Shown here: positions 35,783 through 56,678 of the stretch, one piece after another
How the letters are laid out: each line of letters starts with the position of its first letter
Numbering within the stretch: position 1 is the stretch's first letter
Assembly (NCBI GenBank): GCA_963790465.1
Contig: CAWBOP010000013.1
Location: 128,092 to 192,091 of the forward strand
Origin: Terriglobia bacterium
Lineage (GTDB): Bacteria > Acidobacteriota > Polarisedimenticolia > Polarisedimenticolales > JAIQFR01
Reading direction: 5' to 3'
DNA length: 64,000 bases
Position numbers and translations under genes: made by a program
The notes under the pieces: generated by a model
Database searches by the model: none
What the model was told of the DNA's origin: nothing
Seen by the model: only the letters and a program-made list of their open reading frames with translations

Positions 35783-35825
35783 CGTCATTCTCCTCCGTAT
35801 CAGGTGTGTGACTCTCACGACCCGG

Positions 35826-36316
35826 TCACTTCCCGGATGTCGCTACCGACTTCCCGGTGACTTCGATCTGTGGCATCGAGCAGACGTAAATGTAGGCGGG
35901 CCCGCCGGGCGGCTGCTTTGCCTGCTCGGCGTCCGGTGTGCGCTGCGGCGCCCTGCCAGGACGCGCTGCCAGGCTGGCGCCGATGACGATTCCCGCGACC
36001 AGCAGCAGCACCGCGAACGCGATCGCCGCGGGCGCGGGAAGTGCCGGGCGCCACCACGATGACCACCAGGTTCCCTGCGGCCGGCGGGCGCCAACCTGCG
36101 CAGGGAGCAGGAACCGTGCGGGCAGCCTCTCGTCCGTCTGGCGCAGGATCTCCTCCCGGTCCTGCCGCGCCGTGCTGCGGAAGCGGATCAGGGAGTCGAG
36201 GAAGTGCCGGCACTCCGTGCAGCCCTCGAGGTGCGTGAAGAGGCCGACCGCTCCAGGCCGTCGGGCTCGGCATCCATCAGCAGGCTCAGTTGCAGTTGTC
36301 GTTCATCGCATGTCAC
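35826..36316 (-). CDS. Anti-sigma factor (zf-HC2 type, one TM), frame breaks
   Basis: GTG overlaps the sigma stop (GTGA). VTCDERQLQLSLLMDAEPDGLE / FTHLEGCTECRHF in the adjacent frame. TM segment AFAVLLLVAGIVIGASL. Confidence 0.65.
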
Positions 36317-36864
36317 GGCTCGCCTCCTCGCTCCAGCGCGGGTCTCAGCATTCCGGCCAGTGCCTGCCGGGCCCGGAACAGCCGGGCCTTCACGGCGCTC
36401 TCGGTCGCCCCGGTGACCTCCGCGATCTCGCGGTACGAAAGTTCCTGGTACTCGCGCAGGACCAGAACCTCCCGCTGCTCCGGTGGCATCTCCGCCAGGG
36501 TCCGCTGCACGAGGCGCGACTCCTCTTCGCGCTCGAGCAACGTCGCCGGCCCTTCCCTCCGCGGCTCGGGGTCCGCGCCGGCGCTCAACCGCTCGCGGGT
36601 TTTCTGCTGGCGTAGCAAGGTCAGGCAGCGGTTCCGCCCCACGGTGAAGAGCCAGCCGCGGAAGCTCCTCAGGCTCTGCAATTCGTGGCGCCGCTCGTAA
36701 ATCCCGAGGAAGGTGTCCTGCACCAGGTCGCCGGCCGCCTCGGCGCTCCCGAGCATGCGGACGCCGAAGACGTACAGCGGCCGACGGTAGCGTTCGTACA
36801 GGGTGGAGAACGCTCCATCGTCCCCGCCACGGAAGGCGTCCGCGAGTTCCTCGTCCGAGCTCAT
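36313..36864 (-). CDS. ECF-type RNA polymerase sigma-70 factor
   Basis: Region 2 (FSTLYERYRRPLYVFGVRMLGS..DLVQDTF) and region 4 (REVLVLREYQELSYREIAEVTGATESAVKARLFRAR). The start is either 36864 or 36906. Confidence 0.9.
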   Translation of the reverse strand: MSSDEELADAFRGGDDGAFSTLYERYRRPLYVFGVRMLGSAEAAGDLVQDTFLGIYERRHELQSLRSFRGWLFTVGRNRCLTLLRQQKTRERLSAGADPEPRREGPATLLEREEESRLVQRTLAEMPPEQREVLVLREYQELSYREIAEVTGATESAVKARLFRARQALAGMLRPALERGGEP

Positions 36865-36990
36865 CGTTCGACGGTCCCCAGTCGGCAACGGTCCTGCCGG
36901 GTTCATCCCAAGGACGCCCGAGCGGGCGGAAAGTTGCGCTCCGCCACCGGAAATGGAACGGGGGCGGACCTTGCTTCCGGTCCTCCCGCG

Positions 36991-39378
36991 CTACCGGTTC
37001 TTTGTCTTCGCGTCGAGGAACGCGCGGATGGCCGCGTGCTGCGCCTCCGCGTCCAGCCCCGCCTCGTGCAGCACGGCCGCGCCCTGGCCGCTGCCCAGGT
37101 AGTGGCCCTTGACGTAGGGATGCAGCGTGGCCGCCCGGCCGCGGTCGGACCGCACCCAGCGGTACATCGTGGCGAGGGTGAAGCCGGTGATGCCCATGGC
37201 CTCGCGGCGCGCTCGCCTCGGGGAAGATGCGCTCGCGCTCCGCCGGCGGGCAGCGCGTCGAACAGCTCGGCGCTCGCCACGTAGTAGACGTCGAGGTCCA
37301 CGCCCTCCTGCTCGAGCCGGGGCAGCACGTCGGCGACGAAGGCCAGCGTGACCGCGCTCTCCTGCAGCACCAGCGTGCCGTCGGCCTTCGCCTTCGGCGC
37401 GCGCAGCCGGTAGACGCCGGTGCGGCACGCCTCGACCGGGGCGAGGCCCAGCTTCGCGCGGTCGGGCACGGTCTCGTTGGGCCGCGTGACGAACGGCGCG
37501 AGCACGGCCGGCCGGCGCGCGAGCGCGGCGGAGACCAGCGGCCACAGCTCCGGCGGGTCCCAGGGCGTGAGCGTGATCGGCGGTCCCGGGCGGGAAGTTC
37601 TCCTGCAGCAGCTGGAGCGCCTGCGGGTCGGCGTGCGTCGGGCCGTCCTCGCCGGTCTTCAGCCCGGCGTGCGCGCAGACCAGGATGATCGGCCGGTACG
37701 GCCCGCCGTCCACGCCGTGCCGCGCCTGGTTGCCGATGGCGTGCAGGCGCGCGGCGATGTGCCCGAGCGGCGCGAGGAAGGCCGCGTACGACGAGGCCAC
37801 GCCGATGTGCCGGCCGAAGCTGCCGATGCCCGAGAGGACGCCGCTCATGCGCGTCCTCGCAGATGCCGCCGATCGACGAGCGTGCGCGACTCGGGGTTCG
37901 TCGCGGCGTTCCAGAAGCCGGCGGGGAAGCCCTCGGCGACCTTGTTCACGCTGGTCGAGCCCAGCAGGTCGGCGGCGGCCACGAACAGCGCGCCGCCGCT
38001 GGCCTGGTTGAGGTGGTGGAGCGCGCGGCCCAGCTCGTTGCGCAGCGTGGTCACCGTGCCGGGGGCGAGCGCGCAGCGCCGCGGGGATCGCGCCGCCGTC
38101 CTGCGCGATGCCGTCTCGTACACGGCCTCGACGCGGGGCGCGCCCGCGCGGGGCTTGCGCGCCCGGGCGTCGAGCCGCTCGCGGGCGGCGCGCAGCCGGC
38201 CGGCCAGGTGCTGCACCATCGGCCGGCCGCTTCTCGAGCGCCCGGCGGATGACCTGCAGCGCCTCCCAGAAGCAGGCCTCCATGACGTCCGGGCCGTCCG
38301 GCCCGGCGCAGCGCAGCGGCGTCGAGGCCCTGGCAGCAGGGCAGCGCCTGCTTCGCGTCGCCGAGCAGCGGCTGCAGCGCCTCGTAGAAGCCGTCCGAGC
38401 AGAGCGCGTGGCCGGCGCCGTGCGAGGCGCGGCCCTCGATGCCGTACTGCCAGCCCTTGACGGTGCGGTAGACGATGGCCGTGGGCTGGCCGTTGCCCGA
38501 GCGCGGCCGCCAGGCGCTGGGCGGCGATCACCTGCTGGAAGTCCTTGCCGTCGGGCACGAAGATCGACGTTCCAGTCGTGCAGGTAGGCCAGCTCCGCCG
38601 GCGTCCACTGCACGTAGTCGCCGGGCTTCTCGCCGTCGCGGCAGACGCGGTTCGAGTCGATCGAGGCCTGGTTCCAGTCCACGTGGAGCACGGCGTTGTC
38701 GAGCGAGGCGGTGCCGGCGGCGGCCAGCGCCTCGGCGACGCGGCCGGGCGTCATGCCGCCCTCGCCCTCGACGATGTGCACGCGCGGCGCGTCCGCGCCG
38801 TAGTAGTCGCGCGCGCCGAAGGCCAGGCCCAGCGAGGCCGCCAGGCCCACGCCCGAGGCGCCGGTCGAGAGCCGGACGAACGGCGTGGCCGGCGTGGGAT
38901 GGCCGTCGAGCGCCTTGGCCTTGAACTTCAGGAACAGCGGGGTGCGGCTGGACGGGATTGCGGCGGAAGCCGAGCAGGTCCTCGAGCCGCAGCTGGCGCT
39001 GCTCGTCGCGCGGCAGCAGGTCGGGCGCGCCGATGCGCAGCAACTCGTTGCGCAGCGCCCACATGGCGTACAGGCCGAGCGCCTTGTGCCCGGCGGCGTA
39101 GGAGATGATGTCGGCGTCGTCGCGGTCCGGGCTCGCTGACGTCGTAGTCCATCGCGTCGAAGAGCAGCGCCGGCCACGAAGCGGCCGGACGAGATGGAGC
39201 CGCCGGGGTGGCCCGACAGCGGGACGTAGTTGTAGAGCACCGCGCAGAGCGAGCGGTAGATGAGGTCGAAGGCTTCGAAGTGCTCCAGCTCCTGCGGCGG
39301 GAGCGCCGGTGCCCGATCGCGCGTCGCGTCGGCGACCTCGACGTAGCGGCCCCGGCGCGGCCCGAATTGGAATGCCAT
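36991..39378 (-). CDS. Transketolase-family thiamine-diphosphate enzyme, unusually long (many frame breaks)
   Basis: SGHPGGSISS, VEGEGGMTPGRVAEAL (GDG-x-EG-like TPP motif). Pyrimidine-binding and C-terminal domains are recoverable from alternate frames (36903..37505, 37845..38558, 38528..39637). Confidence 0.75.
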   Translation of the reverse strand: MAFQFGPRRGRYVEVADATRDRAPALPPQELEHFEAFDLIYRSLCAVLYNYVPLSGHPGGSISSGRFVAGAALRRDGLRRQRARTATTPTSSPTPPGTRRSACTPCGRCATSCCASARPTCCRATSSASCGSRTCSASAAIPSSRTPLFLKFKAKALDGHPTPATPFVRLSTGASGVGLAASLGLAFGARDYYGADAPRVHIVEGEGGMTPGRVAEALAAAGTASLDNAVLHVDWNQASIDSNRVCRDGEKPGDYVQWTPAELAYLHDWNVDLRARRQGLPAGDRRPAPGGRARATASPRPSSTAPSRAGSTASRAAPRTAPATRSARTASTRRCSRCSATRSRRCPAARASTPLRCAGPDGPDVMEACFWEALQVIRRALEKRPADGAAPGRPAARRPRAARRPGAQAPRGRAPRRGRVRDGIAQDGGAIPAALRARPRHGDHAAQRAGPRAPPPQPGQRRRAVRGRRRPAGLDQREQGRRGLPRRLLERRDEPRVAHARRSAASARTRMSGVLSGIGSFGRHIGVASSYAAFLAPLGHIAARLHAIGNQARHGVDGGPYRPIILVCAHAGLKTGEDGPTHADPQALQLLQENFPPGTADHAHALGPAGAVAAGLRRARAPAGRARAVRHAAQRDRARPREAGPRPGRGVPHRRLPAARAEGEGRRHAGAAGERGHAGLRRRRAAPARAGGRGPRRLLRGERRAVRRAARRRSASASSPRRARREAMGITGFTLATMYRWVRSDRGRAATLHPYVKGHYLGSGQGAAVLHEAGLDAEAQHAAIRAFLDAKTKNR

Positions 39379-39476
39379 GAGTCCCCCCTGGTGGCGGCGC
39401 CGTCGTCGCGACGGCGCCCATCGTCTCGCGCACAGTATCCGTTTCCGCGCGTCGCAGCGTCAACGTGCGGTCGTGC

Positions 39477-39600
39477 CCTGAAGATTGTGTCTGGTCCCGC
39501 GCCAGGGCCTTTGCAGCAACAAGATGGACCGCAGGCCGGCAGGGAGCGAGGCAGGTTTCGAGCGCCCAACGGGATGCGGCTTGGCAGACACAATCTTCAG
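39477..39600. repeat. Perfect 16-bp inverted repeat enclosing ~90 nt (structured RNA or MITE-like)
   Basis: ctgaagattgtgtctg (39479-39494) and cagacacaatcttcag (39585-39600). The flanks gtcgtg / cacgac extend the pairing. Confidence 0.7.
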
Positions 39601-40350: not shown

Positions 40351-41130
40351 ATGAACCTGTTCGTCCTGCTGAAGACGGTTCCGGACACGGTCGAGGAGCT
40401 GACGGTCGCCGCGGACAACAAGTCGCTGGACGCGGAGTGGCTGAGATTCAAGCTCAGCGACGCCGACGAGCACGCGCTCGAGCAGGCCCTGCTGCTGAAG
40501 GAGAAGCACGGCGGCACGGTCACGGTGGTGGCGATGGACGCGCCCGAGCTGGACGAGGCGCTGTTCATGGCGCTGGCCAAGGGCGCGGACCGGGTGGTCA
40601 AGCTCACCGGCGAGCTGGCGCGCGGTGCAGAGCTGCTCCGCGGCGCGAGCTGTTCGCCGACTTCCTCAAGGCCGCGCCGGCTGCGGTCGCGGCGGACACG
40701 CTGATCCTGCTGCGCAGCCAGGCGATCGACGACCTCGAGGGCGAGATCGGCCCCTTCCTCGCCGACCAGCTCGGCGCTGCCCTACGTCGGCGTGGTGACG
40801 GGGTGGCCCCCGGCGGCGGCGGGCGTGCATCGTCACCAAGGAATTCGCCGGCGGCCTGCGCGGCGAGTTCAGCCTGCCCGATGCCGGCGGTGCTGGGGAT
40901 CCAGTCGGCCGAGAAGCCGCCGCGCTACGTGCCCATCGCCAAGGTGCGCGCGGCCATGAAGTCCTCCACGCTCGAGACCGTGGACGTGACGCCGGACGCC
41001 CCGGCCCGCTTCCCGATCGAGAAGCATGTACAAGCCGGAGAGCGCCGGACGGGCCGAGATGCTGGAAGGCTCGCCGGAAGAGGTGGCGGACCGCCTCGTG
41101 GACCTGCTCGCGAACCAGAGCCTGATCTGA
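40351..41130 (+). CDS. etfB: Electron transfer flavoprotein beta subunit (frame breaks)
   Basis: MNLFVLLKTVPDTVEEL...ALEQALLLKEKHGGTVTVVAMDAPE...MPAVLGIQSAEKPPRYVPI. Confidence 0.85.
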
Positions 41131-41143
41131 GGGGGTGACGACC

Positions 41144-42129
41144 ATGGCAAACGGAATCCTCATCCTGGCGGAGCACCTCAAGGGCGAGGTCGCGGACATC
41201 ACGTTCGAGATGCTGGGCGCGGGCCGGAGGCTGGCGGACGCGCTGGGGCGTGCCCCTGCGCGTGGCGCTGGTCGGCAAGGACGTCGCTTCGCTGGCGCCC
41301 CGGCTGGGCCTGGCCGACGAGGTGCTCGTCGGTCGACGACTCCCGCGCTCGAGATGCCGGCGGCCGGCACGCTCGGCGGGCCTGCTCAAGGCCTGATGGA
41401 GCAGAAGTCAGGCCGGGCTGGTCCTGCTCGGCGGGACGAACGCTCACGATGGGCGTCGGCTCGATCCTCTCGGCGCGGACCGACCTGCCGCTTCGTCAAC
41501 TTCTGCAAGGACGCGAAGGCGGACGGGCCCGACGTGCTCGTCACCAGCCAGTTGTTCGGCGGCAAGATCCTCACGGACGTCCGTCTCGCCGGACGGGACG
41601 CGGCATCGTCGGCGTCTCCCCGGCTCCTTCCCCGCGGACGCAGGCCGAAGCGACAAGACGCCGCCCGGTCGAGAACGTGGAGGTGCCGGTGGAGGCCTCG
41701 CCGGTGACCTTCAAGGCGTTCATCGAGCCCGAGGCCGGCGACGTCGACATCACGAAGCAGAACGTCCTCGTGGCCGTCGGCCGCGGCATCCAGACCCAGG
41801 ACAACATCGCCCTGGGCGAGGAGCTCGCCGCGCTGCTGGGCGGCGCGGTCTGCGGCTCGCGCCCGGTCATCGACCAGGGCTGGCTGCCGCTGACCCGTCA
41901 GGTCGGCAAGTCGGGCATGACCGTCAAGCCCAGGCTCTACCTCGCGCTGGGCATCAGCGGCGCCCCGGAGCACCAGGAGGGCATGAAGGACTCGCCGATG
42001 ATCATCGCCGTCAACACCGACCCCGGCGCCCCGATCTTCGACGTCGCCAAGTACGGCGTGGTCATGGACCTCTTCGAGCTGGTCGAGCCCCTGAAGGCCG
42101 CCATCGAGGCGCGGAAGGCCAGCGCATGA
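41144..42129 (+). CDS. etfA: Electron transfer flavoprotein alpha subunit (frame breaks)
   Basis: MANGILILAEHLKGEV... and the C-terminal FAD domain VAVGRGI..CGSRPVIDQGWLPLTRQVGKSGMTVKPRLYLALGISGAPEHQEGM..IIAVNTD. Confidence 0.85.
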
Positions 42130-42139
42130 CGGCGGGCCC

Positions 42140-44173
<2,034 letters not shown>

Positions 44174-44188
44174 AGAAGGGACGACTCC

Positions 44189-45403
44189 ATGGCTCATCGT
44201 CGAACGCGCTGTCACCTGTCCGACCGACACCACGCTGGAGACCCTCCTGGCCACGCCCGAGGGCCAGCAGATCATGACCTGCCTCCAGTGCGGGACGTGC
44301 GCCGGCACGTGCCCGTACGGGGAGTACATGGAGTACCCGCCGCGGGCGATCATCAACATGCTGTGGCGCGGCCTGCTCGACGAGGTCATCACCTCCGACA
44401 GCCTGCTGCGCTGCGTGGCCTGCTACGCCTGCCTGAGCAAGTGCCCGCGCGGCATCCGGCTCACCGACGTCCTGCTGCCGCTGGTCAAGGAGCAGACGCT
44501 GGCCAACCTGAAGGAGCTGCCGGCCGAGCTGCAGAAGTCGCTCGAGAACATGTCGCGCTACGGCAACCCGATGGGCGAGTCGCCGCGCAAGCGGGCCGCC
44601 TGGGCGGCCACCGCGGGCGTGCCGGTGCGCAACCTGGCCGAGAAGCCGGGCCCGGTGGACGTGCTCTGGTTCGTGGAGTGCTACACCTCCTTCTACCCCC
44701 GCGGCCAGGACGAACAGCCGCGCCACGGCGAAGCTGTTCCACGCGCTGGGCGTGGACTTCGCCATCCTCGGGCAACGAGGAGAAGTGCGCCGGCGAGTGC
44801 GGGCAGCCTGACCTGGGAGTCGGGCCTGTTCGAGACGCTCACCGAGGCCAACATGAAGACTCTTCAAGCAAGTACAAGTTCAACCGCATCGTCACCGGCG
44901 ATCCGCACGCCTTCAACGCCTTCCGCAGCCGCTATCCGCTGGCCGAGCATGGGCTGGCAGGTCGAGCACACGACGCTGTTCCTGGCGCGGCACCTCGACC
45001 AGCTGCAAGCCCAGGCTCACGAAGAAGCTCGAGGCCAAGGTCACCTACCACGACACCTGCTGCCTCGGGCGGGGCATGGGCTGCTACGACGAGCCGCGCG
45101 AGCTGCTCGGCGCCATCCCCGGCGTGACGCTGGTCGAGATGGTCGCACAACCGCGTCAACTCGCTCTGCTGCGGCGGCGGCGGCGGCGGGATGTGGCTGG
45201 ACACCTACTACAAGTCGAAGGGCATGGACCGGCTGTCCGAGCGGCGGGTGAAGGAAGCCATCGCCACCGGCGCGGACGTGCTGGCCGTGTCCTGTCCCCT
45301 AGAGCTGTTCCGTTTCGAAGACGCCGTGAAGACGCTCGGCCACGACAAACAGATGGTGGTGCGGGACGTGGTCGAACTGCTGGCCGAGTCACTGGAGGGT
45401 TGA
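44189..45403 (+). CDS. Second HdrD/GlpC-like Fe-S protein (2x[4Fe-4S] + 2 CCG domains; frame breaks)
   Basis: ATG after GAAGGGA. CLQCGTCAGTCP, CVACYACLSKCP, YHDTCCLGRG, LCCGGGGG. Confidence 0.75.
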
Positions 45404-45406
45404 CCG

Positions 45407-47404
45407 ATGAGCGAGCCCGTCCGAATCGGGTTCTACATTTGTCACTGCGGCACCAACATCGCCGGCATGGTGGACGTGGAGGCGGTGGCCAAGTACGCGG
45501 CCACGCTGCCCAACGTGGTCGTCTCCCGCGAACTACAAGTACATGTGCTCCGATCCGGGCCAGGAGCTGATCCAGCAGGACATCAAGGAGCACAAGCTGA
45601 ACCGCATCGTCGTGGCCGCGTGCTCGCCGCTGCTGCACGAGCACACCTTCCGCAAGGCGACCGACGAAGGGCGGCCTGAACCCGTTCTTCTTCCAGATGG
45701 TGAACATCCGCGAGCACGACGCCTGGGTGCACACCGACCGCGCGGAGGCGACGCGCAAGGCCATGGCCCTGGCGCGCGCCGCCATCCAGCGCGTGCCGCT
45801 CCACAAGCCGCTCGAGGTCAAGAAGGTCCCGATCAACCCGAACGTGCTGATCGTGGGCGGCGGCATCGCCGGCATCCACGCGGCGCTGACCCTGGCCAAC
45901 GCCGGCAAGAAGGTCTACCTCGTCGAGCGCGACGCCACCATCGGCGGGCACATGGCCAAGTTCGACAAGACCTTCCCGACGCTCGACTGCGCCGCCTGCA
46001 TCCTCACGCCCAAGATGTCCGCGGTCGGCTCGCATCCGAACATCACGCTGTGGACGCTACTCCGAGGTCGCCAAGGTGGACGGCTACGTGGGCAACTACA
46101 AGGTCACCGTCAAGCGCAAGCCGCGCTACATCATCGAGGACCTCTGCACCGGCTGCCAGGAGTGCGTCGAGGCCTGCGTCTATCAAGGAGCCGCAGTTCG
46201 CCGACGAGTTCAACCAGGGGCTCGGCAAGCGCAAGCCGGTCTTCATGCCGTTCCCGCAGGCCGTGCCGCCCGTCGTCATGATCGATCCGGGCACCTGCAT
46301 CGAGTCTGGACCCACGGCAAGTGCAAGAAGACCTGCGTCGAGGCCTGCGGCGACCGCAAGGCCATCGACTTCACGCAGAAGGAGGAGCTCAAGGAGATCA
46401 AGGTCGGCACGATCATCGTGGCCACCGGCTTCAAGATCTTCGACGCCAAGCGCATGCCCTACTACGGCTACGGCGTCTACCCGAACGTCTACAACGCGCT
46501 CGAGGTCGAGCGCCTGGTCAACGCCTCCGGCCCGACCGGCGGCGAGATCGTCATGCGCAACGGCAAGACGCCCGAAGACGGTCGCCATCGTCCACTGCGT
46601 CGGCTCGCGCGACGAGAACACCAACCGCTGGTGCTCGCGCGTCTGCTGCCTGTACTCGCTGAAGCTGGCGCACCTGATCAAGGAGCACACCGACGCCGAG
46701 GTCTACAACTTCTACATCGACATGCGCACGCCCGGGCAAGAGCATGGAGGAGTTCTACAACCGCATCGCCGAGGAGGGCGTGCACCTGATCCGCGGCAAG
46801 GTGGCCGACGTCTATCCCGGACCCGAGCGATCCCGAGGGCAACCGGCTGCTCGTCGTGCAGGCCGAGGACACGCTGCTCGGCCGGGTGCTCAAGTTCCCG
46901 GTGGACATGGTGGTGCTCGCGGTCGGCCTGGAGCCGCAGGCCGACGCCGCAGGACGTGCGCCGCATGTTCAACATGAGCTGCGGCACGCGAGGGCTTCTT
47001 CCTCGAACGCCACCCCAAGCTGGCGCCGGTCAGCACCTTCACCGACGGCATCTTCCTCGCCGGCTGCTGCCAGGGGCCGAAGGACATCCCGGACACCGTG
47101 GCCCAGGCGGCGCGGCCGCGGCGGAGGCCTGCTCGCTGATCGACAAGGGCTACATCGAGCAGGAGCCGAACACGGCCTACATCCGTCGAGGAGGAGTGCT
47201 CGCGGCTGCAAGTCCTGCATCCCGCTCTGTCCCTACACCGCGATCACCTTCGACGAGGACAAGAAGAAGGCCATCATCAACGAGGCGCTCTGCAAGGGCT
47301 GCGGCACCTGCGTGGCCTCCTGCCCGTCCGGCTCGATCGTGCAGAACCTGTTCGAGGACGAGGAGATCTTCAGCGAGATCGAAGGGATCCTGGCCAATGA
47401 ATGA
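45407..47404 (+). CDS. hdrA: Heterodisulfide reductase subunit A-like flavoprotein (about 10 frame breaks)
   Basis: [24 protein letters not shown] (FAD), [36 protein letters not shown]. Confidence 0.85.
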
Positions 47405-47909
47405 CAAACCCTGGGAGCCGCGCATCGTCGCGTTCTTCTGCAACTGGTGCACCTACACGGCGGCGGACCTGGCCGGCGTGTCGCGCATGAAGTACGCGGC
47501 CAACATCCGCGATCATCCGGCTGATGTGCTCGGGCCGCGTGGACCCGCAGTTCATCCTGGACGCGCTTCGCCAAGGGCGCCGACGGCGTGCTCATCGGCG
47601 GCTGCCATCCCGGCGACTGCCACTACGTCGAGGGCAACTACAAGATGCTGCGCCGCTTCCAGCTGCTGCAAGCGGATGCTCGGCGACATGGGCATCGAGC
47701 CGGAGCGCGCTGCGGCTGGAGTGGATCTCCGCCGCCGAGGGCGAGAAGGTCAAGACGCGTGGTCAACGACATGGTGGAGAAGGTCAAGGCGCTCGGCCCG
47801 CTCGACCTGCCCGGAGCAGTTCGAGGCGTGGGACCGCGAGATGGATGAGCTGCGAGGCCGGAGGCCCTGCAGCCGCACGCCGGACATCAGGAGGCGGCCC
47901 ATGCGCTAA
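47397..47909 (+). CDS. mvhD: MvhD-like (methyl-viologen-reducing hydrogenase delta subunit) [2Fe-2S] protein (frame breaks, 3' end uncertain)
   Basis: The ATG overlaps the hdrA stop. [32 protein letters not shown]. Confidence 0.75.
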
Positions 47910-48884
47910 ACCCAAAGTCGCCTTCTACTGGTGCGCCTCCTGCGGCGGCTGCGAAGAAACCGTCGTGGACCTGGCCGAGGACATCCTCGGCGTGGTCGAG
48001 GCGGTGGACATCGTCCTCTGGCCCGTGCGCGATGGACTTCAAGATACAAGGACGTCGAGGCGATGCCGGACAAGTCCATCGTCGCCACGCTCCTCAACGG
48101 CGCCATCCGCACCTCCGAGCAGGAGGAGATGGCGCACCTGCTGCGCCGCAAGAGCCAGTTCCTGATCGCCTACGGCTCCTGCGCGGCCACCGGCGGCATT
48201 CCCGGCCTGGCCAACCAGTTCTCGCGCGAGCAGATCCTCAAGTTCACCTACGAGGACGGCCCGACGATGGTGAACGAGGCAGAAGACGCGCCCGCAGACT
48301 CAAGTTCACGCGACGAACGGCCACGAGCTGCACGCTGCCCGGAGCTGCGCAAGGTCGTGCGCTCGCTCGACCAGGTGGTGGACGTGGACTACTACCTGCC
48401 CGGCTGCCCGCCCACGCCCAAGCTCACCAAGGCCGCGGTCGGCGGCGCTGCTGGAGGGCAAGCTGCCGCCCAAGGGCACCGTGCTGGCGCCCGACATCGC
48501 GCTCTGCGACGAGTGCCCGCGCAAGGACGAGCAAGCCCACCGACCTGGCGTTCACCGAGTTCAAGCGGCCGCACCAGGTGCTGATCGATCCGGAGAAGTG
48601 CTTCCTGGCGCAGGGCGTGGTCTGCATGGGCCCGGCGACCCGCGGCGGCTGCGAGGCGGTCTGCATCCAGCGGCAACATGCCCTGCACCGGCTGCTTCGG
48701 CCCGACCTCGCGCGTGAAGGACCAGGGCGCCAAGATCCTCTCCTCGGTGGCGTCCAACGTCGCGCCCAGGGAGACGGGGGCCATCGACCAGGTGCTCGCC
48801 GGCATCCCCGACCCGGTCGGGACGTTCTATCGCTACGGGCTGGCCAAGTCGCTGCTCCGCAGAAAGGTGCCGAAGCAAGGGTGA
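47901..48884 (+). CDS. mvhG: [NiFe]-hydrogenase small subunit, MvhG-like (frame breaks)
   Basis: [61 protein letters not shown]. No Tat signal, so a cytoplasmic type. Confidence 0.8.
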
Positions 48885-50896
48885 ACGCTCCTGACCACCA
48901 TCCTGGGGAGCCTGCGCAACGGGCCGCCGCGTCGAAGGCGGCGGCCTGGCGCGGCTGTTCCGACTGCGCATCGGCGCCAAGCTGGAGCTGAGCTTCCTGC
49001 TGATCATCATCCTGATCAGCCTGATCCTCAGCCTGGTGGGCACGTGGGTCATCGGCGACCGCTTCGTGGAGCAGGCCCAGGAGAAGGTGCGCACGGATCT
49101 CAACTCCGCGCGGGAGATCTACCAGAACAACCTGCTGCGGATCAGCGACGCGGTCCGCTTCGTCTCGGACCGGGACTTCGTCCGCTCGCCGGCGTCCGCC
49201 GGCGGCCGCGACCGGCTGCTGCGCCGGCTCTCGGAGCATCCGCGAGCAGGAGCATCTCGACGCCCTGACCGCTGACCGACGCCCGCGGGGTCGTGATCCT
49301 GCGGACCTCGAACCCGGGCGTGTACGGTGACGACCAGAGCCGGCAGCAGCTGGTGCGCGCGGTGCTGCGAGCGGCACGAGCCCGTCGCCGCGACGGTGCT
49401 GATCCCGCACGAGGAGCTGGCCATGACCTCGCCGCGAGCTGGCCGCAGCGGGCGACGATCGAGCTGGTCCCGACGGAGAAGGCGCGGCCGCGCCCCGAGC
49501 GGTACTCGACCGACCGGCATGACGCTCAAGGCGGCGGCGCCGGTGTTCGACTTCGACCACCGCTTCGTCGGCGTCGTCTACGGCGGGCGTGCTGCTGAAC
49601 CGCAACCACGAGATCGTGGACAAGATCAAGCAGACCGTGTTCCAGGGCCTGCAGTACCGCGGCCGGGACATGGGGACCGCGACCATCTTCCAGGACGACC
49701 TGCGGATCTCGACCAACGTCCTGAACGCGGACGGCTCGCGGGCGATCGGCACGCGCGCCGCCGAGAACGTCTACGACGCGGGTGGTGCGGGACGGCCAGC
49801 AGTGGATCCACCGCGCCTACGTCGTCCGCGACTGGTCCATCACCGCGTACGAGCCGATCCGGGACTACGGCGGCGCCATCATCGGCATGCTGTACGTGGG
49901 GCTGCTCGAGGGGAAGTACGTCGAGGTCCGCCGCCGCACCGTGTTCGTGTTCCTGGCGGTCACGCTGGTCGGCTCGCTGCTGGCGCTCACGCTGTCCCAC
50001 TACCTCTCGCAGCGCATCTCGGGCTCGCTGGAGCAGCTGGTCGCCGGCGCGGAGCAGCTCGCGTGCGGGAACCTGGACCAGCGGGTCGAGATCCGCTCCG
50101 GCGACGAGTTCCAGGAGCTGGCCGAGACGTTCAACGCCATGGCGGCGGCGCTCAAGAAGCGGGACGAGCAGCTCAAGGAGCAGGCCGCGCGCAAGGTCAT
50201 GGAGTCCGAGCGGCTCGCCCTGATCGGGCAGCTGGCCGCCGGCGTGGCCCACGAGATCAACAACCCGCTCACCGGCATCGTGACCTACTCGCAGCTGCTG
50301 CTGGAGAAGAACCCGGGCGAGGGCTCCACGCGCTCGTCGCTGCAGAAGATCGTCACGCAGGCGAACCGCTGCCGCAAGATCGTCCGCGGGCTGCTGGACT
50401 TCTCGCGCCAGAGCAAGCCCGACGAGCGTCCGTGCAACGTGAACACGGTGCTGCAGGAGTGCGTCTCGCTGGTGGCCAACCAGGCGCTGTTCCACAACAT
50501 CGAGCTGGTGCAGAACGCTTCGGCCGAGGACCTGCCGCTGGTGCCGATGGACCCGTCGCAGATGCAGCAGGTCTTCATGAACCTGATCATCAACGCGGCG
50601 GAGGCGACGCCCGCGGATGGCCGTCTGACGCTGACGACCCGGCGTGGACGCGATCGGGCCGGTTCGTCGAGTTCGAGTTCGCCGACACCGGCTGCGGCAT
50701 CAAGGAGGCGGACCTGGAGCGGATCTTCGATCCCTTCTTCACGACGAAGGGGGCGCGCCGCGGGACCGGGCTGGGGCTGGCGATCAGCTACGGGATCGTC
50801 AAGGAGCACCGGGGCACCATCGCGGTCGAGAGCAAGGTCGGCAAGGGCACCACGTTCGTGGTGAGCCTGCCGTTGTCGCTGGAGGAGGCGGCGTAG
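48881..50896 (+). CDS. Sensor histidine kinase with TM, Cache-like sensor, HAMP, HisKA and HATPase domains (frame breaks, start uncertain)
   Basis: TM LSFLLIIILISLILSLVG. Cache-like region ..ATIFQDDLRISTNVLNADGSRAIGTRA..AYEPIRDYGGAIIGMLYVG. HAMP. H-box GVAHEINNPL. NLIINAAEA, DTGCGI, GTGLGL. Confidence 0.8.
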
Positions 50897-50899
50897 GAC

Positions 50900-52064
50900 G
50901 TGGAGAAGCCCAGCAGGATCCTGATCATCGACGACGAGGAGATCGTCCTCGATTCCTGCCTCGCGGTGCTGGAGGGCAGGAACTACGAGATCGCCACGGC
51001 CCCGGACGGGACCGAGGGCCTGAAGCTGGCGCAGGAGTTCGCGCCGGACCTGGTCCTGGTGGACCTGATGATGCCGGGCATCTCCGGGTTCGAGGTGCTG
51101 GAGGGGATGCGCGGCATCGACCCGACGATCGTGACCATCGTCATCACCGGCTACTCGACGGTGGAGTCCGCGGTCGAGGCGATGAAGCGGGGGGCGTTCG
51201 ACTTCCTGCCCAAGCCCTTCACGCCCGACGAGCTGCGCCTGATCGTCCAGCGCGGTCTCGAGCACCGCCGGCTGGTGCTGGAGACCATCACCCTGCGCCG
51301 GGAGAAGGAGATGCTGCAGCAGAACTTCGCGGCGATCATCTCCCACGAGCTGCGCTCGCCGCTGAGCGCGGTCCAGCAGAACCTGTTCGTGCTCACGGCC
51401 GAGCTGGACGCACCAGCTCAACGAGTCGCAGAAGGACCGTTTCGAGCGCCTCAAGGCCCGGATCGCCGACCTGCTCAAGATGATCCAGAGCTGGCTGCGG
51501 GCCGTGTCGGTCCCCGAGGGGAAGATCGGCGGGGACTTCGCCCCCGTGTCGGTCCAGGCCGCGATCGCCAGGGCGATCGAGAGCGTGCAGCCGCACGCGA
51601 CGCGCAAGGACATCGCGATCACCGACTCCGACGCCGGGTCCCTGCCGCCGGTGCTCGGGGACGAGACGATCCTGACCGAGGCGCTGGTCAACCTGATCGG
51701 CAACGCCGTCAAGTACACGCACGCGGGGGGCAAGGTCGCCGTGAGCGCCGCGGTGGAGGCCGGCCAGGTCGTGGTCTCGGTCGCCGACACCGGCGTCGGC
51801 ATCGCGGCGGAGGACGTGCCCTTCGTCTTCGACGCGTTCTACCGTGGCAAGATCGGCCCCGACGCCGAGGCGGGGTGCGGTCTGGGGCTGGCGCTCACGC
51901 GCCGGATCATCGAGGCCCACCACGGCACCATCTCGGTCGAGAGCGAGGTCGGCAAGGGGACGACGTTCACCGTCCGCCTGCCCGTGCATACCGCAGAGAG
52001 CACCAGCCCGCCCGGAGAGGCACCGGCTGCCCCATCCACCCGTGATCCCGGAGACCAGCGATGA
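50900..52064 (+). CDS. Hybrid response-regulator receiver + histidine kinase (one or two frame breaks)
   Basis: REC (ILIIDDE..LVLVDLMMPG..LPKPF). H-box ISHELRSPL. NLIGNAVKYT, DTGVGI, GLGLAL. Confidence 0.8.
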
Positions 52065-52484
52065 GCGATCGCAAGCAGCTGCTGATGATCGACGACGATC
52101 CCGATTTCGTCGATGGCATCAAGTCCATCCTGACGGCCGCCCAGTACGACGTCGACGTCGCCCACAACCCGAAGGACGGCCTCGCGGCGCTGCAGAAGAA
52201 GAAGTACGACCTGCTGCTGCTCGACATCATGATGGGGCGCGGCGCCGAGGGCGTCATGATCGCGCGCAAGATGAGCCGGGACCCCAAGCTGCGCGAGATC
52301 CCCGTGCTGATCATGACCGGGCATCCGGGAGCAGATCGCCTTCCTGTTCGGCAGCCAGGCGCTGCACCCCCACTTCGTCGAGGTGGACGAGCTGATGGAG
52401 AAGCCGGTCGAGCCGCGGCTCCTCCTGGAGCGGATCGAGGCGCTGCTGAAGGCGGCGAGCGCGAAGGCAAGCGAGAAGAAATGA
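52061..52484 (+). CDS. Stand-alone response-regulator receiver protein (one frame break)
   Basis: LLMIDDDPDF..LLLLDIMMG..PVLIMTG, then the C-terminus ..MEKPVEPRLLLERIEALL in the adjacent frame. The start overlaps the upstream stop (ATGA). Confidence 0.75.
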
Positions 52485-53062
52485 GCACCGAGACCATGGA
52501 GACCAGGCTGGATTTCATCGGGGAGATCAACAACCTCCTCCACGCCTCCACCAGCAACCCGGTGAACACCTGCATCCAGTGCGGGACGTGCTCCGGGTCC
52601 TGCCCGGTGGCCTCCGGCGGGTTCATGAGCCACACGCCGCGGCGGATCATCGCGATGATCCGGGCGAACCGGAAGGATGAGACGCTCCGGGCGAACACCT
52701 ACTGGTACTGCTCGTCGTGCTACATGTGCACGGTGCGGTGCCCGCGGGGGATCGACATCGCGGAGCTGATGTACGCGCTGAAGCGCTACTCGATCTGGAA
52801 GAGCGAGTACGCCAAGGACCTCATCGGCCCGACGTTCTCCGAGACGTTCATCCAGACCATCATGAAGAGCGGCCGGTCCTACGAGCCGGTGCTGGCGACG
52901 ACCTATCTGTTCTCCTTCGGCTTCCAGGACATGCTGCAGGAAGCGGCGACCGCGACCGGCCTGATGCTCAAGGGCCGCATGCCGGTGCTGCCGCCCCGGA
53001 TCAAGCGGCTGGAGAACTTCAAGCGGATGATCCGGAAGATCGTCCCGGTGGAGGAGAAATGA
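52481..53062 (+). CDS. hdrC: Heterodisulfide reductase subunit C-like (2x[4Fe-4S])
   Basis: CIQCGTCSGSCP and CSSCYMCTVRCP. Intact frame. The start overlaps the upstream stop. Confidence 0.85.
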   Translation: MSTETMETRLDFIGEINNLLHASTSNPVNTCIQCGTCSGSCPVASGGFMSHTPRRIIAMIRANRKDETLRANTYWYCSSCYMCTVRCPRGIDIAELMYALKRYSIWKSEYAKDLIGPTFSETFIQTIMKSGRSYEPVLATTYLFSFGFQDMLQEAATATGLMLKGRMPVLPPRIKRLENFKRMIRKIVPVEEK

Positions 53063-53951
53063 CCAGGAAGTACGCGTACTTCCCGGGCTGCTCGCTGGAG
53101 AAGATGGCGCGGAGCTACCACGACTCCGCGATGGAGACGACGCGCGCCCTCGATGTCGAGCTGCAGGAGATCGAGGACTGGAACTGCTGCGGCGCGACCA
53201 CCTACTTCAACATCGACGAGCTGCTCGCCTACACGCTGTGCGCGCGCAACCTCGCCATCGCGGAGCAGCTCGAAGCTGGACGTCGATCGCGCCCTGCAGC
53301 GGCTGCTACAAGAACATGTACGCCGCCCGCAAGCACCTCAAGCACGAGCCGGATCTCATGGAGCACATCAACGAGGCGCTGGCCGAGGACGACCTGAAGT
53401 TCGCGGGGACCTCCGAGGTGCGCCACCTGATCGACGTGCTGGTGAAGGACGTCGGGCTCGAGGAGATCAAGAAGCGGGTGCGCCGGCCGCTGACCGGCCT
53501 CAAGGTGGCGCCCTACTACGGCTGCCAGATCGTGCGTCCGCGCAAGGACCACGAGGACGTCGAGTCGCCGCGCTTCTTCGAGGACCTGATGACGGCGATC
53601 GGCGCGGACCCGGTGGAGTACCTGCTCAAGCTCCGCTGCTGCGGCGGCGCGCTGCTGATCACCAACCGCGAGGCGGCGCTCAGCCTGGTGCGGAACCTGC
53701 TGGAGAACGCGGTGCAGTCCGGCGCGGCGATCATCGCCACCGCCTGCCCGCTCTGCCAGGTCAACCTGGAGTGCTACCAGAAGCAGGTCAACAGCGAGTT
53801 CGGAACGAACCTCAACATGCCGGTGCTCTACTTCACGCAGCTGGTCGGGCTGGCGCTCGGCGTCCCGCCCGGCAAGCTGGGCATCGGCTCGGAGCTCGTC
53901 AACGTCATGCCGGCGCTCGCCAGCGCGGGGAGCGGCGGAGGTGGACGTTGA
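53059..53951 (+). CDS. hdrB: Heterodisulfide reductase subunit B-like (two CCG domains; one frame break)
   Basis: FPGCSL, WNCCGA, CSGCY, YYGCQ, LRCCGG, ACPLCQ. The start overlaps the hdrC stop (ATGA). Confidence 0.85.
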
Positions 53952-54011
53952 CCCATCGTGAGATCGCAGGAAACCGACGGCGGATCCGTTGAAACCGGAG
54001 AAGGCAAGCCA

Positions 54012-55546
54012 ATGAACCCAGTCACTGGAGCAGTCTCGAAGGGCGACACCGGGGCCGCCGCCGTCGCCCAGGGCAAGCGCATCACCATCGATCCGATCAC
54101 CCGCCTCGAGGGGCACGGGAAGATCGACATCTTCCTGGACGACCAGGGCGACGTGGAGCACGCCTACCTGCAGATCCCCGAGCTGCGCGGCTTCGAGGTG
54201 TTCAGCATCGGGCCGGCCCGCGGAGGACATGCCGCAGATCACCAGCCGCATCTGCGGCGTCTGCCCCACGGCGCACCACATGGCCGCCACCAAGGCGCTG
54301 GACGACCTCTACCAGGTCGAGCCGCCGCCCGCGGCGAGGAAGATCCGCGAGCTGGTCTACAACGCCTTCATGTTCGAGGACCACGCGCTGCACGTCTACA
54401 TCCTGGGCGGGCCGGACTTCATCGTCGGGCCGGACGCGCCCGCGGCGAAGCGCAACGTGGTGGGCGTGATCGAGACGGTCGGCGTCGACGTCGGCAAGCA
54501 GGTCATCAGCATGCGCCGGCGCGTGCGCGAGCTGATCGCGTACTTCGGCGGCAAGGTGATCCACCCGGTGCTCGGCCTGCCCGGCGGCGTGTCGAAGGGC
54601 CTGGCGCCGTCCGACCTGCCGCGGTTCAAGGAGCTGGCGAAGGAGTCGGTCGAGTTCGCGCAGTTCACGCTCCAGGTGTTCAAGGACATCGTCCTGAAGA
54701 ACCCGGAGTACGTGAAGCTGATCACCTCGGACGCCTACACCCACAAGACCTACTACATGGGCATGGTGGACGCGAACAACAAGGTGAACTTCTACGACGG
54801 CCTGATCCGCGTCGTGGACCCGGCCGGCAAGGAGTACGCGAAGTTCCCGGCGCAGAAGTACCGCGACTACATCGGCGAGCACGTCGAGCCGTGGAGCTAC
54901 ATCAAGTTCCCGTTCCTGAAGCCGCTGGGCTGGAAGGGCTTCGTGGACGGGCCGGAGACCAGCCTGTTCGCGGTCGCGCCGCTGGCGCGGCTGAACGCCG
55001 TCCGACGGCATGGCGACGCCGCTGGCGCAGAAGGCCTACGAGGAACTCTTCGCCACGCTCGGCGGGAAGCCGGTGCACCACACGCTGGCCAACCACTGGG
55101 CGCGCGTGCGTCGAGATGCTCCAGGCGGCCGAGCGCATGGTCGAGCTGCTGAACGACCCGGAGATCATCAGCCCGGACATCCGCACCATCCCGACCGCAG
55201 AAGCCCACGGTCGGGCATCGGCGTGGTCGAGGCGCCGCGCGGCACGCTGTTCCACCACTACGAGACCGACGAGAACGGCATCATCACGATGGCGAACCTC
55301 ATCGTCGCGACGCAGAACAACGCGGCCCGCATCGCGATGAGCGTGGACAAGGCCGCCAAGGGCCTGATCTCGAAGGGCAAGGTCACCGACGGCCTGCTGA
55401 ACATGGTCGAGATGGCGTTCCGCGCCTACGACCCGTGCTTCGGCTGCGCCACGCACGCGCTGCCGGGGGAGATGCCGCTGATCGCGCGCATCTACGACCC
55501 GGACCGCCAGCTGGTGCAGGAGATCCGTCGCGACCCGAAGGCGTAG
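54012..55546 (+). CDS. mvhA: [NiFe]-hydrogenase large subunit, cytoplasmic Mvh/group-3-like (few frame breaks)
   Basis: RLEGHG, RICGVCPTAHH (N-terminal Ni-binding), DPCFGCATH (C-terminal Ni-binding, Cys not Sec). Confidence 0.9.
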
Positions 55547-55711
55547 AGGGAAGGCCGGCGCCGTTGCGGGGCACCTGCGGATCTTCGCAGGTCCGGGGCC
55601 GCACCCCGCGCGGCGGCCGGCCGTAGGAACGGGAGCCGTCGCCGGGGCGCTCGCGCCGGAGGCGGCTCCCGCGTTCGTGGTACACCTGCGCAGGAGCGAG
55701 ACTCGGCCATC

Positions 55712-56179
55712 ATGAAGATCATCGTGCTGGGGCTGGGCAACGACCTGCTGGCGGACGACGCCATCGGCCACCTGGCCGTGAAGCGAACTCGGGCCGCGCC
55801 TGGAGGGCCGGGCCGACGTCGAGGCCACGGCGCTGCACGGACTGGCCCTGCTCGACGTGCTGGCGGGCTACGACGCCGCGGTCGTGCTCGACGCGGCCTG
55901 CACGGGCGACGCGCCCGGTCGGCGAGGTCCACGAGATCGACGCCGGCACGCTGGCCCGCGTCCAGAACCCCTCGCCGCACTTCGCGGGGTTCCCCGAGAT
56001 GCTCGACCTCGCCGGGCCGCCTCGAGCTGCACTTCCCGCAGAAGCTGCGGATCATCGCGGTCGAGGTGCTGGACCCGTACACCGTGGGCGGTGTCATGAC
56101 GCCCGCGGTGCGCGACGCGCTGCCCGAGCTGTGCGAGCGCGCGGAGCAGGCGGTGGGGGAGCTGGAAGCAGGAGGCTGA
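55712..56179 (+). CDS. Hydrogenase maturation endopeptidase (HycI/HoxW/FrhD family; frame breaks)
   Basis: MKIIVLGLGNDLLADDAIG... and ..SPHFAGFPEMLDL.. are typical of the family. Confidence 0.8.
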   Translation: MKIIVLGLGNDLLADDAIGHLAVKRTRAAPGGPGRRRGHGAARTGPARRAGGLRRRGRARRGLHGRRARSARSTRSTPARWPASRTPRRTSRGSPRCSTSPGRLELHFPQKLRIIAVEVLDPYTVGGVMTPAVRDALPELCERAEQAVGELEAGG

Positions 56180-56225
56180 GAGCTCGCCGTGCCCGCTCCC
56201 ACCTGCGCCCTGCGCGGGTGACGGG

Positions 56226-56453
56226 TCAGGGTGTGGCGGGGATCAGGTCCAGCACTTCACCCGGCTCGGGGAACCGCCCGGTCTCGTGCTTCGAGAAGAG
56301 GGTCGCTCCGTCGAGGACGACCTCGAAGATGCCACCGGAGCCCTTCACCAGCTCCGCCTCGATGCCCCTCGCACCACGGATCTCGGCCGCCAGACCGGCA
56401 GCCCTGGGCAGGTACCCTCACTGACCGCAGTAGGTGATCGTCAGCCTGCTCAT
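56226..56453 (-). CDS. SelW/SelT/SelH (Rdx)-family selenoprotein candidate, in-frame TGA = Sec
   Basis: Not callable as a plain ORF. Reads MSRLTITYCGQ-[TGA 56420-56418]-GYLPRAAGLAAEIRGARGIEAELVKGSGGIFEVVLDGATLFSKHETGRFPEPGEVLDLIPATP, with the same frame on both sides. The TGA sits exactly at the second redox position of the family CxxC/CxxU motif. GAGGGAGG SD. Confidence 0.7.
56385..56403 (-). other. SECIS-like hairpin downstream of the in-frame TGA
   Basis: On the coding strand, GGCTGCC-GGTCT-GGCGGCC gives a 7-bp stem (one G-U pair) and a GGUCU loop, starting 14 nt after the TGA. The loop resembles the E. coli fdhF SECIS apical loop. Confidence 0.45.
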
Positions 56454-56678
56454 GTCGCCTCCCTCGGGTGCGTGAACGGCTCCTGGAGGCACTATAGGCT
56501 CGCCTCCCGGCCCTGCCAAAGTCCGCGGCCCCGTCAACACCCGCAGCTCCGCCGCGGTTCGGCGCGCGCGACACCCGCGCCGCTTTCCGTGCGCCTGCGC
56601 GACGGACTAAGATGCGAGCCCTCGCAACGGCCGTCCCGGGGCCACCGGCTCCCGCGGCCCGACCCTGGAGATCCACGC

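Follow-up and report, generated by a model that had tools for sequence, protein, structure and literature searches.

We analyzed a 64,000-nucleotide (nt) stretch of DNA from Terriglobia bacterium (GTDB lineage Bacteria; Acidobacteriota; Polarisedimenticolia; Polarisedimenticolales; JAIQFR01; assembly GCA_963790465.1, contig CAWBOP010000013.1, positions 128,092 to 192,091), here called the window. We found a 14-gene cluster, on the + strand throughout, that joins genes for an electron transfer flavoprotein (ETF) and a membrane Fe-S protein to genes for an HdrA-type flavoprotein and an Mvh-type [NiFe] hydrogenase. The cluster spans positions 40351 to 56179, from the ATG of etfB at 40351 to the protease stop, which ends at 56179. 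Its order is etfB-etfA-EMO-hdrD2-hdrA-mvhD-mvhG-HK-RRHK-RR-hdrC-hdrB-mvhA-protease, where EMO is a predicted ETF:menaquinone oxidoreductase, HdrD2 is a soluble HdrD-like protein, and HK, RRHK, and RR are signaling proteins. Together with the hdrA/mvh module, the etf/membrane Fe-S module makes up one conserved unit, which is almost certainly co-transcribed. We propose with moderate confidence that this unit encodes a cytoplasmic, H2-oxidizing, bifurcating complex of the Mvh-Hdr type in which an outlet to ETF and menaquinone (MK) replaces or supplements HdrBC. We consider this the best model because the co-occurrence, paralogy, and integrity data fit it better than they fit any rival. The genes that carry the proposal are as follows.

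40351..41130, + strand: etfB, ~257 amino acids (aa) after repair, Pfam ETF, with intact 257-aa homologs in related loci L001 and L002
41144..42129, + strand: etfA, ~325 aa, Pfam ETF and ETF_alpha
42140..44172, + strand: predicted EMO/EtfD-like ETF:menaquinone oxidoreductase, ~675 aa, 3' end approximate
44189..45403, + strand: hdrD2, ~400 aa, predicted two [4Fe-4S] clusters and non-cubane-cluster (NCB) domain, no transmembrane (TM) segment
45407..47404, + strand: hdrA, ~660 aa, predicted full-length bifurcating-type flavoprotein
47397..47909, + strand: mvhD, predicted [2Fe-2S] adaptor, Pfam FlpD 1-123/123, 5.1e-55
47901..48884, + strand: mvhG, hydrogenase small subunit, Pfam Oxidored_q6
54012..55546, + strand: mvhA, predicted group 3c-type [NiFe] hydrogenase large subunit, 509 aa
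55712..56179, + strand: hydrogenase maturation endopeptidase, 154 aa, Pfam HycI

The components all come from known families, and full-text literature searches turned up no account of an Mvh-HdrA-HdrD-ETF-EMO cluster. This agrees with an initial annotation of this DNA, which had not recognized the arrangement as a described system. The Desulfobacterium autotrophicum (D. autotrophicum) genome paper has only a separate etfAB-hdrF locus (etfAB-hdrF3).

We mapped all 14 proteins onto the loci from an HdrA-anchored search with one genome per species, which gave 56 loci with at least 6.5 kb of upstream sequence. We found that 39 of these (type A) have the order hdrC-hdrB-hdrA-mvhD-mvhG-mvhA-protease and none of HdrD2, EtfB, EtfA, or EMO. 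The other 17 (type B) have all four of these proteins together, and the hdrCB slot is taken by HdrD2 or by the entire four-gene module. A partial module, with only some of the four, was found in 0 of the 56. At least nine HdrA-anchored loci carry HdrD2, Etf, EMO, HdrA, and Mvh with no hdrB within 10 kb. The reverse test was an independent, HdrD2-anchored search of metagenome contigs. Among the loci that extend 4.5 kb or more on both sides, 22 of 22 have Etf and EMO, and among those that extend 7 kb or more, 16 of 16 have HdrA. The hdrD2 gene was next to or near hdrA in all loci examined, and the co-occurrence persisted down to 44% HdrD2 identity. Gene order is permuted among lineages, and the gene set is retained. 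The hosts, as given in the records, include Verrucomicrobiota/Opitutaceae, Acidobacteriota, Ignavibacteriales, Bryobacteraceae, and metagenome-assembled genomes (MAGs) labeled Bacteroidota and Omnitrophota; the samples were of peat, soils, lakes, and aquifers. Among named relatives, Verrucomicrobiota MAGs match best, and the closest contigs are unclassified. Dozens of independent contigs from several phyla carry this set of genes, so that the arrangement is hardly a chance one.

The junctions within the cluster are tight. The intergenic gaps from etfB through hdrA are 3 to 17 nt, hdrA and mvhD overlap by 8 nt, mvhG and HK overlap at GTGA (as the mvhG stop and HK also do in L084), and ATGA overlaps are found at RR/hdrC and hdrC/hdrB. 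Thus, the start/stop overlaps reported in the initial annotation are real at these four junctions, and its proposal that both modules are joined in one putative operon is supported by conserved synteny and spacing. Its gene order, in which hdrC followed mvhG, had skipped ~3.6 kb with three signaling genes (48.9 to 52.5 kb). A scan of 17 kb found no terminator-like or promoter sites on the + strand in the cluster, which is weak negative evidence, and Rfam at gathering thresholds gave no match in the entire 64 kb, i.e., no tRNA or rRNA genes.

The two modules could be independent neighbors, an ordinary EtfAB-EMO link to β-oxidation beside an ordinary bacterial Hdr-Mvh hydrogenase. Each module is known singly: etfAB-hdrF3 stands at its separate D. 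autotrophicum locus, and hdrCBA-mvhDGA occurs alone in the 39 type A loci. However, the modules co-occur without exception in both tests and in several phyla, although the gene order is rearranged, the genes are spaced by 3 to 17 nt with overlaps, HdrD2 sits in the hdrCB slot, and the EMO is a distinct variant without any distal-cluster Cys. We therefore consider it very unlikely that the modules are merely adjacent.

As read, no gene of the cluster is an intact open reading frame (ORF). The window is ~70% G+C; mechanical ORF lists are swamped by spurious frames and are misleading alone, and a GC3 frame plot was too noisy for direct use. We ran Pfam scans of 39.6 to 56.7 kb in three frames with stops masked as X. 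Single domains were often split across two or three frames, and the FlpD/MvhD domain ran over all three within ~130 residues. A codon-usage Viterbi model that allowed frame switches was used to stitch proteins together. Stitching gave 14 proteins, each with clean Pfam content: ETF, ETF_alpha, two Fer4 plus CCG (in two proteins), HdrA-type FAD/Fer4, FlpD, Oxidored_q6, Fer4_8 (HdrC), two CCG (HdrB), NiFeSe_Hases, and HycI, besides the signaling domains listed below. Every gene named in the initial annotation is thus present on the + strand, exactly within the span it had given. The Viterbi path has 86 segments between 40.3 and 56.2 kb and hence 85 switches, of which ~13 are true gene boundaries and ~70 are intragenic. 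The switches are nearly all in the +1 direction, and the sole in-frame stop crossed by the path is a genuine gene end. The switch rate is 6 to 10 per kb from ~25 kb to beyond 56 kb, compared with 0 to 4 per kb in the first 25 kb, so the frame breaks are regional and not specific to the cluster.

Pseudogene decay is expected to give nonsense codons, relaxed dN/dS, and mixed indels. The ~70 intragenic breaks and the lack of any gene intact as read are what a decayed cluster with real frame breaks would show, a possibility that the initial annotation had raised. We aligned window positions 45407 to 55546 to the related contig L084 (91.7% nucleotide identity) and found 46 one-base insertions and 1 one-base deletion in the window. 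Most of the insertions create CpG, as C[G] or [C]G. Homopolymer-type sequencing error was ruled out, since 36 of the 46 insertions lie away from an identical base. Once the extra bases were removed, nine genes contained 0 in-frame stops in 3,335 codons, with a dN/dS of 0.24. The relatives are all intact. The database proteins nearest to the repaired MvhA are 91% identical to it and 508 to 509 aa long and carry the JGI name "F420-non-reducing hydrogenase large subunit." The L081-L084 contigs carry hdrD2 (3' end)-hdrA-mvhD-mvhG-HK-RRHK-RR-hdrC-hdrB-mvhA-DUF169-protease, all intact and with 4- to 8-nt overlaps, and L081 shares downstream MurB/MoaA/MutY synteny with the window. Unrelated genes at 56.5 to 61.0 kb, on both strands and including a minus-strand gene, also show more insertions than deletions (17:4). 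Because the same insertion bias reaches these flanking genes, we read the frame breaks as a technical insertion artifact and treat the genes as functional. Decay is extremely improbable. The insertions look platform or consensus specific and vary along the contig (window ~25000 to 61000).

The membrane protein is, by its motifs and matches, an EMO/EtfD-family ETF:menaquinone oxidoreductase. It matches Mycobacterium smegmatis (M. smegmatis) EtfD (PDB 9ojn_A) with an E value of 2.9e-67 and has five hydrophobic/TM segments and His83, His228, and His246. It conserves the residues aligned to His241, the heme ligand, and Phe230, the quinone-stacking residue, of M. smegmatis EtfD/EMO (PMC13083937); His83 is a plausible counterpart of M. 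smegmatis His78 but is unaligned by phmmer. The His set is that of the mono-heme M. smegmatis EMO type, not of the twin-heme syntroph type driven by the proton motive force (pmf). Pfam NarI gave no match in this protein. Thus, where the initial annotation had called it a membrane NarI/HdrD-type oxidoreductase, the TM-anchored 2x[4Fe-4S]+CCG architecture stands and the family is corrected. The protein has two CxxCxxCxxxC cubane motifs and, for the proximal non-cubane cluster of its NCB domain, C..CCG..C and a "DPH" His. Only one NCB/CCG half-domain retains Cys. None of the distal-cluster (FeS4) Cys of the first half-domain is left in the window EMO or any homolog (replaced by D, N, or DPH..T), and the loss was seen in the EMO homologs of L001, L002, L012, L018, and L023. 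The protein would thus be a family variant with a single NCB cluster, unlike the two characterized EMOs. In the structure of the Syntrophus aciditrophicus (S. aciditrophicus) EMO:ETF complex, the NCB domain is the site of ETF docking and electron entry (bioRxiv 10.64898/2026.08.18.745454). The EMO-like gene adjoins etfBA in the window and in related loci.

The ETF of the cluster is probably of the nonbifurcating type. The top PDB match of EtfB is the Methylophilus W3A1 ETF beta subunit (4.9e-22), and that of EtfA is the W3A1 alpha subunit (1.1e-48), ahead of bifurcating EtfA. The closest PDB relatives of neither subunit are bifurcating ETFs. W3A1 ETF contains AMP besides FAD, according to the reference list of PMC10279923. 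Asp93' of EtfB, within DGDT(A/G)QVGP, is 100% conserved in group II bifurcating ETFs (PMC10279923). We checked the motif and found that EtfB has QAIDDLEG, kept in homologs, where bifurcating EtfB has DGDTAQVGP. Asp93' is absent from the window EtfB and six homologs, in which the aligned residue is Leu/Ile (DDLEG), so the bifurcating type considered in the initial annotation does not fit.

HdrD2 is, by sequence comparison, a soluble paralog of the cytoplasmic domain of EMO and not of HdrB. It is 36% identical over ~400 residues to the cytoplasmic part of the cluster's own EMO (E value, 7e-78), EMO-type linker included, but only 25% identical to HdrB over 212 aa (E value, 2e-4). No membrane segment was detected in HdrD2. 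Its PDB matches are 9ojn_A (4.1e-41) and HdrC (1.7e-16), with no BamD among them. The initial annotation had listed a second soluble HdrD-like protein; it is present and soluble, and its identity is refined to an EMO paralog. The idea that HdrD2 is a mere fusion of HdrC and HdrB is ruled out by the much stronger similarity to EMO than to HdrB. The first CCG half-domain of HdrD2 has three Cys instead of five and a conserved His (GDxH); the second has five Cys. HdrD2 is likely an adaptor between HdrA and ETF.

A similar route has been described for class II benzoyl-CoA reductase, in which the high-potential electron passes from the HdrA-type BamE to the HdrD-like BamD and then through ETF and EMO to MK; in BamD, a His occupies the substrate site and the distal cluster is degenerate (bioRxiv 10.64898/2026.04.10.717634). 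HdrD2 resembles BamD, going by description and motifs only, in having domains like an HdrC+HdrB fusion beside an HdrA-type flavoprotein. The GDxH His and the three Cys of half-domain 1 may correspond to the substrate-site His and degenerate distal cluster of BamD, with positional equivalence judged from motifs only. The two systems differ in that the input here is a [NiFe] hydrogenase and there the confurcating BamGHI module, and the low-potential output is presumably ferredoxin here and tungsten BamBC there. In addition, ETF (BamOP in the reductase system) and EMO are here encoded within the cluster.

HdrA residues 2 to 657 align to 10 to 653 of PDB 8rvu_a (3e-215), covering the TrxR-like FAD core and the ferredoxin domains, and the NCBIfam model HdrA2 gives 816 bits. 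All NCBIfam matches except that of the protease superfamily model fall below the curated cutoffs and are used here for comparison only. The repaired MvhA carries L1 RICGVCPTAHH and L2 RAYDPCFGCATH. Its RICGVCPTAH and AYDPCFGCATH match the group 3c motifs ICGxCxxxH (L1) and AYDPCxxCATH (L2) (PMC6085437). In PDB, 7t2r_D (1.6e-114) is slightly ahead of MvhA 5odc_F (5.7e-108), and no group 1 enzyme does better than 1e-40. NCBIfam VhuA gives 405 bits, under its cutoff of 800, versus at most 181 for other classes. The L1/L2 check proposed in the initial annotation thus classifies the hydrogenase, on its motifs, as group 3c type. MvhA extends C-terminally past the L2 His, and the cluster has a protease gene to match, whose product gives 78.6 bits with NCBIfam TIGR00072 (cutoff, 47.45). 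As in Mvh/Vhu-type hydrogenases, mvhG and mvhD are encoded with mvhA and linked to hdrA. MvhG is 80% identical to an intact L006 ORF, and no signal peptide was seen on it.

The sequences show gene content, conservation, co-occurrence, paralogy, motif patterns, and intact genes. From synteny, paralogy, and motifs, we infer a chain from HdrA through HdrD2, EtfAB, and EMO to MK, along with complex formation, the direction of flow, and ETF and MK as acceptors. H2 would be oxidized at MvhA, with MvhG and MvhD relaying electrons to the HdrA FAD. From there, the low-potential electron would go to ferredoxin (Fd) through the HdrA ferredoxin domains. The high-potential electron would go to HdrD2, with its two cubane clusters and NCB domain, which would reduce the cluster-encoded nonbifurcating EtfAB. 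EtfAB would shuttle to the membrane EMO/EtfD-like b-heme Fe-S protein, which would reduce menaquinone. The net reaction would be 2 H2 + Fd(ox) + MK → Fd(red) + MKH2 + 2 H+. Electron transfer from H2 to ETF and a disulfide not further specified, one of two options in the initial annotation, comes close to this model in its first part; the disulfide is not needed if HdrD2 is an adaptor. The H2 potential is -414 mV. Values of ~-450 mV for Fd and -74 mV for MK are given in PMC10734219. As a high-potential sink, MK or ETF is superior to CoM-S-S-CoB, and the reaction is more exergonic than with the heterodisulfide; therefore, it would run at low H2.

The other option of the initial annotation was the opposite direction, confurcation of ETF and quinone-pool electrons to H2. 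In such a model, HdrA would combine electrons of reduced ferredoxin with those of reduced ETF (from acyl-CoA oxidation) and/or menaquinol, and H2 formation would be a syntrophic or fermentative outlet. In its favor, the Hdr/Mvh reaction can in principle run either way, syntrophs use EtfAB-EMO as their β-oxidation link, and a FadL-type porin and CoA-metabolism genes, identified by eye, lie ~5 to 15 kb upstream. Minus-strand genes, however, separate these CoA genes from the cluster, and neither the window nor its relatives have an acyl-CoA dehydrogenase within or next to the cluster. The cluster includes no dehydrogenase of any kind that could feed ETF. Confurcation would also be thermodynamically poor: ETF/MK (~0 to -74 mV) averaged with ferredoxin is too positive for H2 except at extremely low H2. 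The EMO His set, as noted earlier, is not of the pmf-driven syntroph type. We judge this direction unlikely.

The remaining five genes of the cluster form a block of a phosphorelay and hdrC-hdrB.

48881..50896, + strand: HK, sensor histidine kinase, TM, periplasmic Cache, TM, HAMP, HisKA, HATPase
50900..52064, + strand: RRHK, hybrid receiver-histidine kinase, Pfam REC-HisKA-HATPase, 3' end approximate
52061..52484, + strand: RR, single-domain response regulator, Pfam Response_reg only, 140-aa homologs
52481..53062, + strand: hdrC, 193 aa, predicted two [4Fe-4S] clusters, Pfam Fer4_8/Fer4_17, NCBIfam CoB_CoM_SS_C
53059..53951, + strand: hdrB, 296 aa, Pfam CCG x2

HK has Pfam sCache_3_3, dCache_3, HAMP, HisKA, and HATPase_c and two TM segments, and the RRHK homolog in L084 is intact at 387 aa. 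The Pfam scan found no output or DNA-binding domain in HK, RRHK, or RR. The HdrB of the block is canonical by its Cys pattern: C..CCG..CxxC occurs twice, and both CCG motifs (10 Cys) are complete in intact orthologs, of which that of L006 matches methanogen HdrB 7bkb_B with an E value of 3.3e-56. The window copy of hdrB is frame-broken at the first CxxC. We found that HK-RRHK-RR-hdrC-hdrB (window 48881 to 53951) keeps a fixed internal order in 15 of 15 complete copies, with the others cut by contig ends. The block has at least five insertion points: before etfB, after hdrD2, between EMO and hdrA, after hdrA, and between mvhG and mvhA. The last of these is used in the window, L006, and L108, and in L132 and L012 the hdrC-hdrB end of the block lies immediately upstream of hdrA, which gives the order of canonical hdrCBA. 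A different arrangement was seen in L045, an Ignavibacteriales MAG, which has two adjacent hdrA copies (positions 1400 to 15000) in the order hdrC-hdrB-hdrA and then directly etfB-etfA-EMO-hdrD2-hdrA-mvhD-mvhG-mvhA. This suggests that alternative HdrA modules share one hydrogenase in L045.

The presence of HdrB allows for a thiol/disulfide shuttle, in which MvhADG-HdrABC would reduce, by bifurcation, a low-molecular-weight or protein disulfide and HdrD2 would reoxidize the thiols, like the thiol:fumarate reductase TfrB, and pass electrons through ETF and EMO to menaquinone. In keeping with this, HdrB has both CCG motifs and is strongly similar to methanogen HdrB in the window and many relatives, hdrC-hdrB directly precedes hdrA in some lineages (L132 and L012), and the top NCBIfam model for HdrD2 is TfrB, at 114 bits, far under the 385 cutoff. 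However, the at least nine loci with HdrD2, Etf, EMO, HdrA, and Mvh and no hdrB within 10 kb do not fit a shuttle. In HdrD2, moreover, a conserved His stands in place of the CxxC of HdrB, which recalls the blocked substrate sites of BamD and EMO, and no thiol cofactor genes were seen in the cluster. A shuttle is quite unlikely.

In the bifurcating model with ETF and menaquinone as the outlet, HdrBC could be a second outlet or partner, of the thiol/disulfide type, under phosphorelay control. An extension of that model, which we regard as doubtful, is that the cluster represents a new, widespread class of H2-dependent bifurcating enzyme with an HdrD2-to-ETF-to-menaquinone route, in which the phosphorelay would switch the complex posttranslationally between quinone and thiol/disulfide outlets. 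The link between the phosphorelay and HdrBC is strictly conserved.

Several points weigh against the bifurcating model. The direction of electron flow cannot be read from sequence. The canonical HdrCB in the window shows that HdrA can have its classical partner, and HdrD2 might not bind HdrA at all. In L053 (Gemmatimonadota), the block accompanies hdrA-mvh, and no HdrD2, Etf, or EMO was captured within 10 kb upstream. The type assigned to EtfB rests on one residue and relative scores. Shared ancestry makes the loci less independent than the co-occurrence counts imply, and the relatives all come from MAGs or metagenome contigs.

We compared the cluster with other known systems. It shares with MvhADG-HdrABC of hydrogenotrophic methanogens (PDB 5ODC and 8RVU) the same six subunit families, with a colinear HdrA (3e-215), group 3c L1/L2 motifs in MvhA, MvhD and MvhG, and an HdrB with both CCG motifs. 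It differs in its bacterial host, the extra HdrD2-EtfAB-EMO module, hdrCB welded to a phosphorelay, and a likely high-potential acceptor that is ETF/menaquinone and not a heterodisulfide. We saw no genes for CoM/CoB anywhere in the 64 kb. With EtfAB-EMO/EtfD of S. aciditrophicus and M. smegmatis (9OJN), it shares a predicted b-heme membrane domain, two cubane clusters, the NCB domain, and adjoining etfBA. In contrast to that system, the distal non-cubane/linear cluster site here lacks Cys, an anchorless paralog (HdrD2) is added, and the partner is a hydrogenase/HdrA and not acyl-CoA dehydrogenases.

EtfABCX/FixABCX, which runs from NADH to ferredoxin plus menaquinone, likewise bifurcates to ferredoxin and the quinone pool via ETF (PMC10734219). 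There, ETF bifurcates and EtfCX (ETF-QO type) reduces quinone, whereas here HdrA would bifurcate and the donor would be H2. Three-frame Pfam scans of 39.6 to 56.7 kb found no EtfC/FixC (ETF-QO-like) or EtfX/FixX domains. The large subunit of the bifurcating hydrogenase NiFe-HydABCSL (PDB 7T2R) is the top PDB match of MvhA; unlike that enzyme, the cluster has no HydABC (Bfu) subunits, and the context is MvhD/MvhG/HdrA.

Mvh/Hdr-type (group 3c) hydrogenases are abundant in Verrucomicrobiota, Acidobacteriota, Ignavibacteria, and other MAGs from peat, soils, and lakes. Such bacteria are not known to make CoM-S-S-CoB, which has left the physiological high-potential acceptor in question. For one large subgroup, the cluster suggests an acceptor: electrons would pass by way of a soluble EMO paralog to ETF and on to menaquinone. 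The identity of the acceptor of bacterial group 3c hydrogenases can thus be tested directly. If the model is correct, H2 oxidation at low partial pressure would be linked to both ferredoxin reduction and respiration, and the BamD→ETF→EMO principle would extend from aromatic degradation to hydrogen metabolism.

We also noted features of the flanking regions. Upstream, at 25000 to 39600, we identified by eye on the + strand a FadL/TodX-type outer-membrane channel, an HMG-CoA-lyase-like gene, a family III CoA-transferase, large and small subunits of the aconitase family, an isocitrate/isopropylmalate dehydrogenase-like gene, and bacterioferritin. The - strand of the same region encodes a transketolase, an ECF sigma/anti-sigma pair, and a TonB-like protein. 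The stitched translations of 25000 to 39600, inspected by eye, showed no acyl-CoA dehydrogenase. The DUF169 gene between mvhA and the protease in L081/L084 has no counterpart in the window, which has only a 165-nt gap there (55547 to 55711), and an ABC transporter and Polyketide_cyc2 gene found before murB in L081/L084 are absent from window positions 56180 to 56600. At 61400 to 64000, GC falls to ~58%, tandem 7-nt units GGGCA(A/C)T are clustered at at least six sites, a 20-nt palindrome-like element (CCCCTCCTTTGTAAGGAGGG) is repeated, and small HicA/HicB-like toxin-antitoxin ORFs, identified by eye, lie between the repeats. This could be a mobile or foreign segment. At 5100 to 8200, two squalene/phytoene-synthase-like genes and an amine-oxidase-like gene resemble, by eye, hpnC/D/E of hopanoid precursor synthesis.

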